Below are positions 16,945 to 23,149 of a stretch of 64,000 nucleotides of DNA, piece by piece; the stretch's first letter is position 1; each line of letters begins with the position of its first letter. Below the pieces are notes generated by a model. That model saw nothing but the letters and a program-made list of their open reading frames with translations. It searched no databases and was not told the DNA's origin. A program made the translations under genes and the position numbers. The DNA is from Flavobacteriales bacterium (GTDB lineage Bacteria; Bacteroidota; Bacteroidia; Flavobacteriales_F; PHOS-HE28): the NCBI GenBank assembly GCA_016787985.1, contig JAEUTC010000043.1, positions 17,145-81,144 of the forward strand, given 5' to 3'.

Positions 16945-17571
16945 ATGGAAAAGCTTCGGATCCTCCAATGTATTCTCTTGCTAGCGGTAACTTCCTCCTC
17001 GGCTCAAGACGTTGAGCATCCATTCCGTATGGGCAGCAACGTCGAGATCTCCGCCGCGCAGCTCCTGATCGCGGGAAGTAACCAATACGCGGACAACATC
17101 CTCGACCGCCAACGCGGCGACGCCACCTTTATCGGTGCCAGCTACCTGCTCGGCGACACCACCGACCAGGGCCGTGGCATCGGGCGTTTCGCCGTAGGGA
17201 TCGGCGCAGGAGCACTGCTATGGGAAGGTATCACCCTGATGCCTGTATTTGGTCAGGTCAACTGGCACCCCTTCGTCCGCCGAGCCCCATGGGCCAGCGT
17301 GCACCTCAGCCGCTTGGGCATCGCCATGCGCTTCGGCGGCATCCTCGGCGCGTGGAAACCCACCACCCGTGGCCAACTCGCCGGGCACACGTACACCGAC
17401 CTGGCCTTCAAGTACCCCGCCCACCTCGGTCGCTTCAACCTGAGCCTCGATGCAGGCCTCGGAATGATCCTTCTACGCGGTCCCTACACCATCGCTGAAG
17501 AAGGCTTGGTGGAGGACAGACGCTTCGCCGAGTTCATCTACCCACGGTTGGGTCTGAGCGTGGGTTTCTGA
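16945..17571 (+). CDS. Hypothetical secreted or outer-membrane protein (208 aa)
   Basis: MEKLRILQCILLLAVTSSSAQD signal peptide. Gly/aromatic-rich, ending in ...GLSVGF, which is beta-barrel-like. The N-terminal 250 aa of the listed 458-aa ORF are antisense to the GT2 gene and were discarded. Confidence 0.5.
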   Translation: MEKLRILQCILLLAVTSSSAQDVEHPFRMGSNVEISAAQLLIAGSNQYADNILDRQRGDATFIGASYLLGDTTDQGRGIGRFAVGIGAGALLWEGITLMPVFGQVNWHPFVRRAPWASVHLSRLGIAMRFGGILGAWKPTTRGQLAGHTYTDLAFKYPAHLGRFNLSLDAGLGMILLRGPYTIAEEGLVEDRRFAEFIYPRLGLSVGF

Positions 17572-17936: not shown

Positions 17937-18311
17937 TCACCGGCGGGAATGGAGTCCCACGGTGTTCCCTTCCGTATCCTTGAAGATGGAGACGAAGCCG
18001 AACTCGCCGATGGCCATCTTCGGCCGCAGCACTTCGCCTCCTGCACGTACGATGCGCGCCTCCTCGGCCTCACAATCCGCTGTTTCGAAATACACCACCG
18101 TGGCGTTGGATCCGTGTCGCAGTTCAGATGTCTCCACCAAAGCCCCCGAGATGTTCCCACTAGTGGGGTCGAAGGGGAACAAGGCCTGCCTGCCCCATTG
18201 TGCGGGCATGTCCGTGAGTTCGATCTGGAATACGGTTGCATAGAACGCTTTGGCGCGCTCCAGGTCGGCGACGGGGATGTCGAACCAACCTACAGGGTTC
18301 TGGTTTTTCAT
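17937..18311 (-). CDS. VOC (glyoxalase) family protein
   Basis: MKNQNPVGWFDIPVADLERAKAFYATVF...GEFGFVSIFKDTEGNTVGLHS. The start was trimmed to 18311. Confidence 0.8.
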   Translation of the reverse strand: MKNQNPVGWFDIPVADLERAKAFYATVFQIELTDMPAQWGRQALFPFDPTSGNISGALVETSELRHGSNATVVYFETADCEAEEARIVRAGGEVLRPKMAIGEFGFVSIFKDTEGNTVGLHSRR

Positions 18312-18440
18312 GTGATGGATCTTCGGTATCGCACCTTGGGTGCCGGGTGCAAAAGTGGATCCACACGGATCGGCGGAATTGTAAAAATGGGACAGTGATC
18401 GGCTGTGATCGATGCGCCTGTTCACGCGCACGGATCAGGC

Positions 18441-19295
18441 TCAAGGCCGATGCACCACGGTGTGCTGGGACATGCGGGCATACTCCATTCCATCGAAGAT
18501 CAACGACATCCGCAAGGCATCGCCGCGAGAGCCCCCCGGGGTCAGGCCCGTGAACGCCTTGAAATCCTTGATGAAGTGTGCCTGGTCGAAAAAGGAGCTC
18601 TCGTAAGCGAGGCCCGTCAGGTCGTTCACCTCATCGAAGAGCATGCGGCGCAGGGCGGACTGGATGCGTACGGTACGCGAATACTGTTTCGGCGATAGGC
18701 CGATGAGCGTGGAGAACTTACGGGCCAGGTGGCGGCGATGCACATGGCTGCGCCGTGACAGTTCATCCACGGTGAGGCTCCCGTTCGTCGTGCGGATGTC
18801 CAAGAGAGTGCGCGCGATCACCGCATCAGCCTGTGGCCGCGTGGCCAAGCGATGGAACAAGAAGCCCTCCACCAGGTCGATCCGTTCTGCGGTGGTGCAC
18901 GCATCCAGGACCCGGCGCCCGATCACATCCCCCTCGAAACCGAACAACCCCTGCAGGGGCACCGCCGTGTTCTCGAACGCCTTCAACGGACCGCCCCAGA
19001 ACGGCTGGAAACCGCCGGGGTGGAAGCGCACCACGAACGACCCCGTGCGCCCCAGCGGACGCACCACGAACGGCTTCGTCAATTGACCGATCAGGAAGCA
19101 GCGCGGCAGATCCACCCACACGCCGGGCCGGGGCTGGTGCAGGTAGGGATCGCCGTAGTGGAAGATCAGCTTCATGGTGCCATCGGGCACGATGGTGTTC
19201 ATCACCGGCGTGTCGTGCGGTTCGCCCACGAGGTTCCAATGGCACATCACGTGCGCATCCAACCCGCGGGAAACTGGGAAGATCTCTGAACGCAT
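18441..19295 (-). CDS. AraC family transcriptional regulator
   Basis: C-terminal double HTH: VDELSRRSHVHRRHLARKFSTLIGLSPKQYSRTVRIQSALR...LAYESSFFDQAHFIKDFKAFTGLTP. Confidence 0.85.
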   Translation of the reverse strand: MRSEIFPVSRGLDAHVMCHWNLVGEPHDTPVMNTIVPDGTMKLIFHYGDPYLHQPRPGVWVDLPRCFLIGQLTKPFVVRPLGRTGSFVVRFHPGGFQPFWGGPLKAFENTAVPLQGLFGFEGDVIGRRVLDACTTAERIDLVEGFLFHRLATRPQADAVIARTLLDIRTTNGSLTVDELSRRSHVHRRHLARKFSTLIGLSPKQYSRTVRIQSALRRMLFDEVNDLTGLAYESSFFDQAHFIKDFKAFTGLTPGGSRGDALRMSLIFDGMEYARMSQHTVVHRP

Positions 19296-19468: not shown

Positions 19469-20101
19469 CTAGAAGTTGAATCCCACATGCAAACCCGGTT
19501 CGCCGAGGATGAACTTGGACCACTTGTCGTCCAGCTGCTTGAAGCCATCCGGTAACCGTGTGTGGTAGGCCCGGTGCGTGATGGCGATGGACGGTTGGAA
19601 GAAGAAACGGTCCTTGAAGAGCTTGATGTGATAGCCGGCCCGGTAGGTGTTGAAGACCTGGAACCCGCCATCGATCTTGTTCCCTTGGTCGTTCACGAAG
19701 TCCTGCAAGGTGGGCATCACGTTCAGCTCGGCATAGAGGCCCTTCCAAAAGAAGCGTTGATAGGAAAGCGAAAGGCCATACTCGCGCACATACCCTGGGA
19801 ATTTCTCTTCCGGCTTTTCGTAGGCATTGTTGAGGAACGGATGTATACCATTGGGCCAGGCATACTTCCAGGTCTTGGGTTCCACGGTGATCACATCCCG
19901 ACCCGTGAGGCGATAGCCGATGTTGAGTTGAAAGAAATCCGGTGGATTGTCGGTGGGCGCCAGGTTACCCACCAGCACGAAAAGGCTGGTTCCCACGAAC
20001 CAGCGCTTGTAGGTGCTGTCCGTTCTCGAGTATTGTGCTTGGAGGTTGAACGAGCTGGTCATCACCAGCGCAAGAATCACGAGTCCGATGTTCTTCTTCA
20101 T
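19469..20101 (-). CDS. Putative outer-membrane beta-barrel protein, paralog 1 (210 aa)
   Basis: MKKNIGLVILALVMTSSFNLQAQ signal peptide, alternating aromatic pattern, and a C-terminal GLHVGFNF. About 45% identical by eye to the neighbouring 205-aa protein. Confidence 0.7.
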   Translation of the reverse strand: MKKNIGLVILALVMTSSFNLQAQYSRTDSTYKRWFVGTSLFVLVGNLAPTDNPPDFFQLNIGYRLTGRDVITVEPKTWKYAWPNGIHPFLNNAYEKPEEKFPGYVREYGLSLSYQRFFWKGLYAELNVMPTLQDFVNDQGNKIDGGFQVFNTYRAGYHIKLFKDRFFFQPSIAITHRAYHTRLPDGFKQLDDKWSKFILGEPGLHVGFNF

Positions 20102-20160
20102 CACTTCTTCTGTTGTTTTCAACGACGGCGCAAAACAAGACCGGCGATGGGCCTCCACTC

Positions 20161-20174
20161 GTTCACTTTGGTGA
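20161..20174. promoter_or_regulatory. Candidate Crp/Fnr-type operator TTCAC-TTTG-GTGAA upstream of paralog 1
   Basis: 5+5 perfect inverted repeat inside a ~57-nt block that is ~80% identical to the block upstream of paralog 2. Its centre lies ~66 nt upstream of the ATG at 20101. Confidence 0.45.
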
Positions 20175-20317
20175 AGGAATGCGCCACACGAACGCCTTTT
20201 TCCGGATGCTCCCGAGCCATGCAGGCATCGCCAGCACGCTCGTGCTACGCAGGACCGCATGGAAAATGAACCGACCCGTTGGTCGAGGATGACAGCCTGT
20301 CTGCCGCCCCTGGTCCT

Positions 20318-20935
20318 CTAGAAATTGAACCCGAAGTGAAGGCCTGGCTGGATGAAGTAGTTGGGCCATCTACTTTCCACGGCCTTGAACACTTCAGGAA
20401 CCTTCGTCCGTACCGGCCAATAGCTACAGCCCATGGCTGGCTCGAAGAAGAACCGGTTCTCCCAGAACCTGAACTGATAACCCAGGTGGAAGTTCAGGTA
20501 CAAGGTGTACCCATTGCCGATCTTCTTTTTGTCCTGATCCATGTATTTCTCGAAGGCGTTCAAGGCATAGATGGAAGTATAGACCCCTTTCCACCAGAAG
20601 CGCTGGTAGCCCACGGTTGGCGCCAGTATGCGCGCATGGCCGGGGTAGTTCAGGCCGGGTGCATCGAATGAGGGACCGAATGGAATACCGATCGGCCACG
20701 CGTAGATGGATCGTTTGAACTCGATCGAGATCACATCCTTCGGGGTTAGCCGATAGCCCACGTTCAACTGGACGTACTCAGGTTTGTTGACCCGATCCAG
20801 ATTCCCGAGCAAGTACAGTGAACTCCCAACGTACCACCGCCGATAGGTGCTGTCCTGCAGGGCAGTTGCAGCGCGGAGTTGGAGCGTGCTGGCCATCAAG
20901 ATCACAAAACCAATGAGAGTGCTTTTCTTCTGCAT
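20318..20935 (-). CDS. Putative outer-membrane beta-barrel protein, paralog 2 (205 aa)
   Basis: MQKKSTLIGFVILMASTLQLRA signal peptide and C-terminal GLHFGFNF. Shared motifs with paralog 1: DSTY(K/R)RW(F/Y)VG(T/S)SL and QLN(I/V)GYRLT. Confidence 0.7.
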   Translation of the reverse strand: MQKKSTLIGFVILMASTLQLRAATALQDSTYRRWYVGSSLYLLGNLDRVNKPEYVQLNVGYRLTPKDVISIEFKRSIYAWPIGIPFGPSFDAPGLNYPGHARILAPTVGYQRFWWKGVYTSIYALNAFEKYMDQDKKKIGNGYTLYLNFHLGYQFRFWENRFFFEPAMGCSYWPVRTKVPEVFKAVESRWPNYFIQPGLHFGFNF

Positions 20936-20992
20936 GCTACCCTACGTGTTGATCGAGGCCGCAAAAGAAGACCGGCGGGTCGCCCCACCGCG

Positions 20993-21006
20993 TTCACTTA
21001 AGTGAA
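20993..21006. promoter_or_regulatory. Candidate Crp/Fnr-type operator TTCAC-TTAA-GTGAA upstream of paralog 2
   Basis: Perfect 14-nt palindrome. It lies between the stop of the Crp/Fnr gene (21014) and the ATG of paralog 2 (20935), with its centre ~64 nt upstream of that ATG. Confidence 0.45.
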
Positions 21007-21013
21007 GGAATGC

Positions 21014-21595
21014 TCAGCCCCTCTCCTTCTCGATGATCCGTGCCCTGAGCCGGCTCAACGATTGGGGGGTGATGCCCAGGAAGCTCGCCAGCTGGTGCTG
21101 TGGCACACGCTGAACGAGGTCCGGACGTGTGCGCAATAGGTTCAAGTACCGCTGTTCGGGTGATGAGGTCTTGAACGCATCGAACTCCACGCGCTCCTTC
21201 GCCAGTAGCTCTTCGGAAAGCACCTTACACAGCGTCTCGAAGCGCGGGAAACGGCTATTCATGTCCACCTCCAGGTCCGCGTCCGAAACGGTCAGGATGG
21301 TGTCTTCCACACAACTGATGGAATACTCGGAGGGCGTTCGGCTCACCACGCACGGTGGTGTCAAGGCCTCCAGCTCGCTATAGAAGGAGGTGGTCCGCTC
21401 CTCGCCATCCACGATGTAGTAGGTGCGGATGCAGCCTTCCAATACGAAGTAGCTGTTCCGCGATCGTTCTCCGGCGTTGAGCAGTATGGTCCCTTTCTTC
21501 ACCGTTCGGAAGATGTCCAAGGAACCGACCACGCTCTTCTCCTCCTCCGTCAAGGTCATGTACTTGGCGATGAAGGCGAAGAGTTTGTTCTGCAT
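21014..21595 (-). CDS. Crp/Fnr family transcriptional regulator
   Basis: 193 aa. A cNMP-binding-like beta-roll (KKGTILLNAGERSRNSYFVLEGCIRTYYIVDGEE) plus a C-terminal HTH (VPQHQLASFLGITPQSLSRLRARI). Confidence 0.9.
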   Translation of the reverse strand: MQNKLFAFIAKYMTLTEEEKSVVGSLDIFRTVKKGTILLNAGERSRNSYFVLEGCIRTYYIVDGEERTTSFYSELEALTPPCVVSRTPSEYSISCVEDTILTVSDADLEVDMNSRFPRFETLCKVLSEELLAKERVEFDAFKTSSPEQRYLNLLRTRPDLVQRVPQHQLASFLGITPQSLSRLRARIIEKERG

Positions 21596-21769
21596 GGATC
21601 ACCGGTCCAGTCTTCGACGGTCATGCGCTACACCCCGCTGATCTTCTTGCGCCACAACCGAACAGACAGCAAAGGTACCGACTCAACACGAGGCGTGCTA
21701 AACGTGGGCTACGGACCTAAGGACCGCAAATCCTGGAACACCTGGCCCCAGGAGAAGGCCGGCACCCGA

Positions 21770-23149
21770 TCACTCCTTCAACTTCACACGCACCTTCTCG
21801 CCATCAGCAGTGATCCGGACCAACGCGTAGTTGCTCACGTTCGCGGGAGAGCCCCAATGCCTCACATCCATCGTCGGCGTAGCGGTGCCCGAACCATCGG
21901 GGTACACGGTAACCGTGTAGCCCCCTGTGGGGGTTTGGGTGGTGTGGGTGTACTTGGTCGCCACGAATTGCACGATCACATGGTATTCACCGGGCTTCAG
22001 GTGCTGGAACGAGAAGCCTCCCCGGTCATCGGTGACCTCGGTGAGCAGGGTCTGTTCCTTCACTTCCAACGGCAGCGGGAAACCTGCGCAGCCGTTGAGC
22101 ACCTGGCCAGCCACGATGGTCGGGGGGAATTTGGTGCGGACGGCGGTGTTGAAGGCCAGCCACTCCTTGAAGTACGGCGTTTGGGGAATGAGCATCACGA
22201 TGCTGCCCTTGGGCGCAAGGATCCTCTTGGGCCGATCCAGCAAGGCCCCGGGCATGCCTTCGTCCGTGGTGTACGCCTGGCCTTCGATGCTGGAATTGCC
22301 CGCGCTGATCATCGCCCGGGCCGCGGCCGCATCGAACGGGGTCACGATGGGGTTGCGGTCGGCTTGCGTATCCATGTAGGTCACGCCGAAGGAGCCGGGG
22401 TCCTTGCTCACGAACAGGATCCTCCGCGACTCCTTCTCGATCACGATCTTGTACGTGTTCGTCGCGGTCAACGTATTACGGAGTTCCACCACGAAGACGT
22501 CCACCACCTCGCCGATGGCACACGACGGCATCTTCATCTCCTGCAAGCTCTCGATCTCCCAGCGCATCACCTTCGTGCGGTAGCCGTCATCGAAGGTCAC
22601 CTGCGGGATCAGGGCCCGGTAGCCCGCCTTCAGGGGCAATAGGCTGACCAGGAACTCCAACGAACTCCCCAGGAAGAACGGCTCTTCGAGGGGTTCATCG
22701 AAATGCTCCTTCTCCCCTGTCCTGTACACCTCGATATCGCCCTTCAATGTCTTGCCGCAGACCAGGTCGTACGAGAAGCCCACCGTCTCGGCCTGCGCAC
22801 GGATGGGCCCGAAGGTGCGGGCGTCCAACACGAGTTTCCGTTTCACCACATCCGCACCCTGCTCCGTATACCGCTCTTCGATCACGATCTCGCCCGCCGT
22901 GCGGCTGATGGTCACGAACCGTTGATCCGGCTTCTGGGGTTCTCCGGAAGCGAATAGACCGCCGGTCGGTCGTTCCCACACGAAACTGCCGGTGTGCAAC
23001 AGCGCCGTGTTGAGGCTGGCACTACCGGGCAGCACGATATCGGGCTTTTGCGCCACCACACGGGTGGGAGCCATGAGCAGTACCGCCATTGCGGTCGAGA
23101 GGGCGAAGGAGACGCGGAACACCATTCCAGCTGATAGCATGTTGATCAT
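21770..23149 (-). CDS. Secreted hypothetical protein with a C-terminal CarboxypepD_reg-like domain
   Basis: Signal peptide ...LLMAPTRVVAQ. The C-terminal VTDDRGGFSFQHLKPGEYHVIVQF pattern is typical of carboxypeptidase-regulatory-like beta-sandwiches. Confidence 0.7.
   Translation of the reverse strand: MINMLSAGMVFRVSFALSTAMAVLLMAPTRVVAQKPDIVLPGSASLNTALLHTGSFVWERPTGGLFASGEPQKPDQRFVTISRTAGEIVIEERYTEQGADVVKRKLVLDARTFGPIRAQAETVGFSYDLVCGKTLKGDIEVYRTGEKEHFDEPLEEPFFLGSSLEFLVSLLPLKAGYRALIPQVTFDDGYRTKVMRWEIESLQEMKMPSCAIGEVVDVFVVELRNTLTATNTYKIVIEKESRRILFVSKDPGSFGVTYMDTQADRNPIVTPFDAAAARAMISAGNSSIEGQAYTTDEGMPGALLDRPKRILAPKGSIVMLIPQTPYFKEWLAFNTAVRTKFPPTIVAGQVLNGCAGFPLPLEVKEQTLLTEVTDDRGGFSFQHLKPGEYHVIVQFVATKYTHTTQTPTGGYTVTVYPDGSGTATPTMDVRHWGSPANVSNYALVRITADGEKVRVKLKE

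Follow-up and report, generated by a model that had tools for sequence, protein, structure and literature searches.

A putative Crp/Fnr-type local regulon, conserved across Bacteroidota, for two subfamilies of outer-membrane barrel genes

The 64,000 nucleotides (nt) of Flavobacteriales bacterium DNA considered here, positions 17,145 to 81,144 of contig JAEUTC010000043.1 (assembly GCA_016787985.1) and hereafter the window, contain a short palindrome, TTCAC-N4-GTGAA, ahead of each of two genes for outer-membrane barrel proteins that lie next to the gene for a regulator of the Crp/Fnr type. Comparative analysis suggests that together they make up a local regulon which is conserved across Bacteroidota and in which the regulator binds the palindromes, controls the barrel genes and activates them, a reading whose probability we put at roughly two in three. 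That the regulator binds both sites and controls the barrel genes is its firmer part and appears very probable; granted this, activation would be the likely sign of control, the sign being inferred from the position of the site. All coordinates are those of the + strand of the window, and the genes concerned are all on the - strand. The regulator gene (21595..21014) specifies 193 amino acids. It is followed after 78 nt by gene A (20935..20318), whose 205-amino-acid product is predicted to be a secreted 8-stranded outer-membrane beta-barrel of what is here termed subfamily A, with GFNF as its C-terminus, and after a further 216 nt by gene B (20101..19469), which encodes a 210-amino-acid barrel paralogue of subfamily B.

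Exact TTCAC-N4-GTGAA palindromes (TTCACNNNNGTGAA) occur in the window at only two places, 20993-21006 and 20162-20175, the former as described in a first-pass annotation of this DNA and the latter one base away from the position, 20161-20174, assigned to it there. The chance expectation is 0.09 exact matches, and none of 100 dinucleotide-preserving shuffles yielded at least two. With a 21-nt weight matrix derived from 129 orthologous sites, only 20991-21011 (33.0 bits) and 20160-20180 (24.0 bits) exceed 8 bits in the whole window, and the matrix gives no further operator target in the 64 kb. Two exact sites against 0.09 expected, which are also the sole matrix hits, exclude chance. Operator A (20991..21011, - strand) reads ATTCC-TTCAC-TTAA-GTGAA-CG and aligns with the phylum-wide consensus ATTTCTTAACTTAAGTGAACG; its 14-bp core starts 7 nt past the stop codon of the regulator gene. 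Operator B (20160..20180, - strand) reads ATTCC-TTCAC-CAAA-GTGAA-CG. When the two upstream regions are anchored on the palindrome, 43 of 56 positions are identical without a gap, i.e., 77%, close to the 80% or so originally estimated; BLASTP gives 38% identity for the two proteins, less than the ~45% then stated. From the centre of the palindrome to the ATG is 64.5 nt for one gene, within the 64-66 nt first reported, and 67.5 nt for the other, outside that range. At both sites a T-rich octamer begins 37 nt after the first base of the palindrome, TTCTTTTG at 20969-20962 and TTGTTTTG at 20138-20131 (both - strand), and these are the presumed -7 boxes of promoters A and B, to be compared with the Bacteroidota sigma-A consensus TAnnTTTG; the offset at B is the same as that in block A and in the family.

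Is the likeness of two blocks within one genome sufficient grounds to speak of an operator? It is better to look elsewhere, and 80 Bacteroidota genome loci, as 6.6-kb stretches, were retrieved via the barrel protein alone, which leaves the sample unbiased toward the DNA motif. In about 74 of them the gene A orthologue is immediately preceded, on its own strand, by an orthologue of the regulator (65-74% identical), and the stretch between the two genes is strikingly conserved. Conservation of the motif at orthologous loci had been set beforehand as the test on which the idea of a regulon could fall; the motif is present there, and the order regulator, operator, barrel gene is kept in the ~74 loci just mentioned. 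The family operator is the 21-bp ATTTC-TTAAC-TTAA-GTGAA-CG, with positions that are 87-100% conserved in a matrix of 129 distinct blocks, and it is followed by a poorly conserved spacer and then, at a fixed offset, by cGCCAATC-TAcTTTTG-C. Whether A is compared with A, B with B or A with B, and whether within the same genome or between different ones, the operator has a mean pairwise identity of ~0.9; that of the spacer beside it is ~0.5. As the spacer positions are saturated while the operator is held, purifying selection acts on the operator however it was copied. The original argument, that selection could be read from non-coding conservation in excess of protein conservation, is weakened within the one genome by possible gene conversion; the footprint across the phylum holds. 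The palindrome too is real, but its form in the window is not that of the family, where 91% of sites have A, and 9% have C, as the third base of the left half-site. TTCAC-N4-GTGAA is hence a minority variant of a usually asymmetric TTAAC...GTGAA, and the four central bases that had been left unspecified are conserved as well, as TTAA, within a motif of 21 bp.

The window itself is 59% G+C compared with a mean of ~40% for the 80 genome loci, and the operator core persists in it as an AT-rich island (20954-21012 and 20123-20181, set against the other loci). Flanks and -7 box are shifted alike in both window blocks, TTTC to TTCC and CCAATCTAC to CCGGTCTTC/G, and the A of TAnnTTTG is gone from the -7 box of each. 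The lineage-specific changes shared by the two blocks comprise the TTCC flank, TTCAC and CCGGTCTT.

Could some other factor read the block, with the Crp/Fnr gene linked to it by position only, or could the likeness of the blocks come from duplication or gene conversion? Traces of copying certainly exist. Remnants of the C-terminal coding sequence of the regulator, 25-70 codons in length and up to 77% identical, are found upstream of several B-type blocks (loci, numbered with the prefix L: L080:2169-2300, L069:3692-3799, L011:5514-5618, L024:3184-3372 and L049:2132-2206, and in the window 20181-20215), and in L018, L053 and L066 such 3'-end remnants precede gene A instead. From these the operator-promoter module seems to have been copied or homogenised along with the 3' end of the regulator gene. 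Spacers from one genome resemble each other slightly more (identity 0.60) than spacers from different genomes do (0.49), and L009 and L012 retain an operator with no regulator gene within 3 kb, L009 having operator and -7 box both intact. Such facts are what a different reader of the block, or copying by itself, would lead one to expect, and yet either is highly improbable: across the classes of the phylum the operator is ~90-100% conserved where neutral positions are at ~50%, the geometry of the site is that of the Crp/Fnr family, and the recognition helix and the half-sites change jointly in L051, L202, L021 and L076, as described below. Further, when metagenome contigs were scanned independently for the exact operator 19-mer, 135 sites were obtained, and the regulator is directly upstream of 102 of them and a barrel gene of 20. 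That the block is a mobile repeat, such as a miniature inverted-repeat transposable element, was considered separately and ruled out, as it is present in a single orientation, is at a fixed distance from the barrel genes and is not dispersed.

The protein encoded by 21014-21595 had been assigned to the Crp/Fnr family, and the assignment is borne out along its full length. Its residues 30-103 match Pfam cNMP_binding (PF00027) with 33.1 bits, the cut-off being 27.5, and a precomputed PF00027 match is on record for all 120 of 120 regulator homologues; the match to HTH_Crp_2 is below threshold (17.5 bits vs 27). The best relative of solved structure is PDB 3DN7 (E 5e-22, residues 3-188), FNR chains are matched at E ~1e-3 (residues 27-187), and both sets of alignments run through residues 160-188, spanning the helix-turn-helix. 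The recognition helix in the window reads ...RVPQHQLASFLGITPQSLSRLRARI..., and 67 orthologues show hardly any variation in the helix segment RVPQHQLASYLGIKPQSLSRLRARI, which accords with the near invariance of the operator. 3DN7, a 'cyclic nucleotide binding regulatory protein' which we take to be a structural-genomics entry from Cytophaga hutchinsonii, has a chain of 194 amino acids, similar in size to the ~193 here, and a similar helix (QRVPQYLLASYLGFTPEYLSEIR); it is a paralogue of the regulator and not an orthologue, and the searched literature has nothing on its function, ligand or DNA site. As to what the sensor domain may respond to, the regulator begins, in translation, with MQNKLFAFIAKYMTLTEEEK and has no N-terminal extension; nor has it an N-terminal Cys cluster for [4Fe-4S], and so it is not an iron-sulphur oxygen sensor. 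By inspection of motifs, the Arg of the phosphate-binding cassette, R86 in the window regulator, is K in the consensus of the 67 orthologues, and the Gly before the Glu of the cassette is replaced in the family by Ser or Thr. Since the cassette Arg is K in most orthologues, the regulator is probably not a receptor for cyclic AMP. These similarities place it within the Crp/Fnr superfamily as a short protein of the Bacteroidota type that is distinct from both CRP and FNR proper; databases, which gave 6595 hits to it, name it in generic terms only, and no published target, site or ligand for it was found in the searched literature.

A further link between this protein and the operator comes from exceptions. 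At the helix position that follows Pro, 115 of the 120 homologues have Q; three have V, one has E and one has A. Two V-type regulators (LGITPVSLSR) adjoin TTATC-N4-GATAA, a site in which both half-sites are changed symmetrically (L051:2925-2945 and L202:2095-2115); the third, in L201, has the operator TTAAC-TTAA-GTTAA. GTCAA half-sites in the company of an intact regulator are confined to the E-type loci L021, where they are in both blocks, and L076, and are present in none of ~60 Q-type loci. L012 and L053 also have GTCAA half-sites and are without an intact regulator; the other E-type regulators and the A-type regulator keep consensus-like sites. Taken together, this co-variation of helix and half-site is supportive, and not decisive, for the neighbouring regulator being the protein that binds.

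Where does the operator lie with respect to the start of transcription? In the orthologues a -7 box, TAcTTTTG, is at a fixed 37 nt after the start of the operator, and in flavobacterial promoters TAnnTTTG occupies -12 to -5 (PMC9723704, which treats -7 box motifs only). From the fixed offset and this placement the centre of the operator would be at -42.5, and the predicted start of transcription, about 5 nt beyond the TTTG and near 20957 and 20126 in the window, would coincide with a base that is A in 74% of blocks. In the matrix of 129 blocks no TTTG or TTG is found 17-21 nt upstream of the -7 box, where the region reads AACGAgTT; the would-be -33 region consists of the promoter-proximal half-site and its flank. 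As far as can be judged from sequence, the architecture is that of a class II Crp/Fnr-dependent promoter. A different promoter reading, with GAAC as the -35 element for an extracytoplasmic-function (ECF) sigma factor, was set aside on inspection of the same matrix, which has no CGT-type -10 at the right distance. Also, A and B blocks alike have a conserved A-rich tract, AAAAAAAgAG, 16-24 nt ahead of the operator, the tract being coding before A blocks, where it belongs to the ...EKKS end of the regulator, and non-coding before B blocks; it could be a contact for the alpha subunit of the polymerase upstream of a class II activator, or a mere trace of copying.

The mechanism that we propose is a familiar one. 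The 193-amino-acid protein would bind as a dimer, via its nearly invariant helix-turn-helix, to the 14-bp core (TTAAC-TTAA-GTGAA in the family, TTCAC-N4-GTGAA in the window) that lies inside the 21-bp conserved stretch, 37 nt before the -7 box of a sigma-A promoter that has no -33 element and with its centre near -42.5. From there it would recruit RNA polymerase as a class II activator, in the manner of FNR, CRP and PrfA, on binding of an effector, probably no cyclic nucleotide, by its N-terminal cNMP-like domain. Each barrel gene would be under an operator-promoter module of its own, in other genomes the B-type gene as an operon with a gene for a DUF6326 membrane protein, and the regulator gene would itself be without an operator. 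In line with this last step, the 150 nt before the regulator gene, inspected in the window and 69 loci, hold no operator-like site that would indicate autoregulation.

The resemblance to well-studied systems is closer at the level of the site than of the protein. FNR and CRP of Escherichia coli share with the regulator an N-terminal cNMP-type sensor and a C-terminal helix-turn-helix, and an FNR site is an inverted repeat of 5-4-5 geometry. As with their sites, the operator would lie ~42 bp before the start, in place of an upstream promoter element; in contrast, sequence similarity is marginal (E ~1e-3), the half-site is TTAAC/TTCAC, conservation extends to the central 4 bp and the flanks and the whole is asymmetric, and the promoter is of the Bacteroidota -7 type and not of the -10/-35 type. 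The closest analogue of the DNA site is that of PrfA of Listeria monocytogenes, a palindrome of 14 bp whose outer half-site and spacing are the same, and TTAAC-TTAA-GTGAA fits 9 of the 12 specified positions of the PrfA box, tTAACanntGTtAa, which is centred at -41.5 (PMC3443378) as against the -42.5 deduced here. PrfA differs in phylum, in its regulon of virulence genes and in its effector, named as glutathione in the title of PMC5359189, and it is absent from the PDB matches of the regulator at E <=0.01.

But need the regulator be an activator? The same protein at the same operator could be a repressor that, until released by an effector, blocks RNA polymerase at about -49 to -36 on a promoter that its strong -7 box suffices to drive. 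In most genomes that box, TAcTTTTG, is near the sigma-A consensus, promoters of this phylum depend chiefly on the -7 element, and the operator overlaps the would-be -33 position; the lack of an operator at the regulator gene is compatible with either sign. What speaks for activation is, first, that the spacing of operator and -7 box is fixed in 129 blocks, as suits contacts with polymerase on one face of the helix, while plain occlusion needs no such constancy. Secondly, Crp/Fnr sites near -41.5 typically activate, as does that of PrfA (PMC3443378). The -7 boxes of the window, being without the A of TAnnTTTG, would moreover make for weaker promoters. Fixed spacing and family precedent favour activation, and we regard repression as unlikely.

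Several considerations nevertheless weigh against the regulon as we conceive it, or against parts of it. The asymmetry of TTAAC and GTGAA and the central TTAA, both conserved, are unusual for a symmetric dimer that reads half-sites only. The co-variation derives from very few and possibly related lineages and has its exceptions, L201 of V type, L060, L027, L017 and L203 of E type, and L205 and L206 of A type. With the spacer identities and the regulator 3' remnants before B blocks in mind, the likeness of the two window blocks may be partly due to gene conversion. As to the sign, many promoters in Bacteroidota have only a weak -33 element, and the lack of one is thus no proof that an activator is needed, and a site at -49 to -36 could equally repress.

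An entirely different possibility is that the element acts as RNA, either as terminator or attenuator of the upstream transcript, or as a cis-regulatory RNA in a read-through operon. In the window a GC-rich hairpin, CGGTGGG-GCGA-CCCGCCG, followed by a T-run, was found by a terminator scan at 20990..20973 (- strand), between operator A and its -7 box and directly after the regulator gene; the hairpin is a strong one, with a minimum free energy of -15.0 kcal/mol and a z-score of -2.7. Across the family 61.6% of the spacer is paired compared with 58.4% in shuffled sequences, and a covariation score of 0.216 (shuffled, 0.173) was reached by 3 of 500 shuffles. However, RNAalifold gives no consensus structure, the folding of individual spacers is near that of shuffled ones (mean z -0.62, median -0.33), window block B with a z of 0.06 does no better than shuffled, no Rfam family matches at the blocks, and the asymmetry, A versus G, disrupts a stem formed by the palindrome in 91% of sites. 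A spacer hairpin or terminator as a feature of the family was accordingly rejected, there being no RNAalifold structure, a small excess of pairing and the mean z just given. In the lineage of the window a terminator may coexist with the operator, and the hairpin at 20990..20973 is probably a lineage-specific intrinsic terminator of the regulator transcript; it leaves the conservation of the block unexplained, and that RNA is what is being conserved is scarcely to be entertained.

The preferred reading, a Crp/Fnr-type local regulon, gains from the consistency of what the operator precedes. A B-type paralogue is downstream of gene A in 58 of the 80 loci, and most B-type paralogues have their own operator-promoter block, though a few lie within 40-70 nt of gene A and form an operon with it. 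In 36 loci the gene for a DUF6326 membrane protein is ~10 nt 3' of barrel B. The canonical cassette thus runs: regulator, block, barrel A (sometimes with a DUF6567 lipoprotein), block, barrel B, DUF6326 membrane protein. There is an open reading frame downstream at 121 of the 135 metagenome sites, a barrel gene in 114 instances and DUF6326 in 3, and no conserved neighbours outside the cassette were found among the 80 genome loci. The operator is essentially private to the cassette of regulator and barrel genes. The original proposal of a local regulon, made up of the Crp/Fnr protein and both barrel genes, is supported by synteny, by conservation of the operator and by the B-type genes having their own blocks. 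Some operator copies stand before genes other than those for barrels, namely before that for a 132-amino-acid lipoprotein in L072 (2571-2646) and, in the metagenome contigs L103, L173 and L182, directly before DUF6326 membrane protein genes.

What are the targets? Both model as 8-stranded outer-membrane barrels, with a signal peptide, a closed antiparallel barrel and a C-terminal aromatic residue. Each belongs to its own widespread subfamily, A and B both being 72-80% identical across Cytophagia, Chitinophagia, Sphingobacteriia, Saprospiria and Flavobacteriia, and on that evidence A and B are ancient paralogues; the paralogy noted at the outset stands, and a recent tandem duplication does not. 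Such conservation, with 75-80% identity between classes, is unusually high for an outer-membrane protein. The superfamily is small and isolated, with 390 cluster representatives at E <=1e-3 among 1.84 billion, and a search for a named family gave no Pfam match up to E 10, no NCBIfam match and no PDB sequence match up to E 1. The closest known barrels are other small 8-stranded ones, namely the N-terminal domains of OmpA and OprF, NspA, OmpW and PagL; in sequence, however, those studied here resemble no family in Pfam, NCBIfam or PDB, databases give them no name, and no invariant set of Ser, His and Asp common to subfamilies A and B points to a hydrolase of the PagL type.

The regulatory logic, that of a local Crp/Fnr regulon, is conventional; the gene set is newly described, and nothing relevant to the cassette, to DUF6326 or to DUF6567 was found in the searched literature. 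Many short Crp/Fnr-like regulators are encoded in Bacteroidota genomes, and for one of them the comparison of loci now gives a precise operator, the layout of its promoter, a small regulon in full and residues that may determine specificity. It also draws attention to a strongly conserved and unclassified family of outer-membrane barrels whose expression would evidently be tightly controlled. Its value is in annotation and in the opening of an uncharacterised, phylum-wide envelope module and not in any new principle, and carriers of the cassette are available in culture among Dyadobacter, Pedobacter, Spirosoma, Larkinella, Runella, Chryseolinea and Lacibacter. A bolder construction may be put on the same facts, that operator and -7 box form a portable activator-dependent promoter cassette which, by duplication or gene conversion, is copied with the last codons of the regulator to positions before new targets, bringing a phylum-wide envelope set (the two barrel subfamilies, DUF6326 and DUF6567) under one sensor, with a ligand new to the Crp/Fnr proteins and with barrels whose conservation resembles that of enzymes and that would be a new functional class in the outer membrane and not structural or of porin type. 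As a whole this is distinctly doubtful.

Some minor features of the window and of the other loci complete the description. A terminator scan also gave a terminator-like hairpin with T-run 3' of gene A (20271..20286, - strand), a consensus match only, by which gene B is implied to be a separate transcription unit. The neighbours of the cassette, all on the - strand, are genes for an AraC-type regulator (19295..18441; DUF6597 plus HTH_18), for a protein with the glyoxalase/bleomycin-resistance fold (17937-18431) and for a 459-amino-acid DUF3108/CarboxypepD_reg-like protein (21770-23149); none of the three is kept beside the cassette in other genomes, the flanking genes varying among the 80 loci. 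Short TAGCACAC-like tandem repeats occur directly before the operator at L009:2890-2935 and L028:2850-2935, both from metagenome-assembled genomes labelled Sphingobacterium. Finally, many regulator genes have, 45-50 nt before their ATG, a second conserved motif, TGGTGGCAAGTGTAACAGAcGACAGTAACAACATAtAAAACAATG, with two GTAACA repeats and unrelated to the operator. It is seen in L005, L014, L019, L031, L039, L046, L078, L080 and others, and in a weak version at 21596-21660 of the window; in some loci a TAnnTTTG box is just upstream of it, and it is probably either a 5' leader that has been conserved or a site for some other factor.

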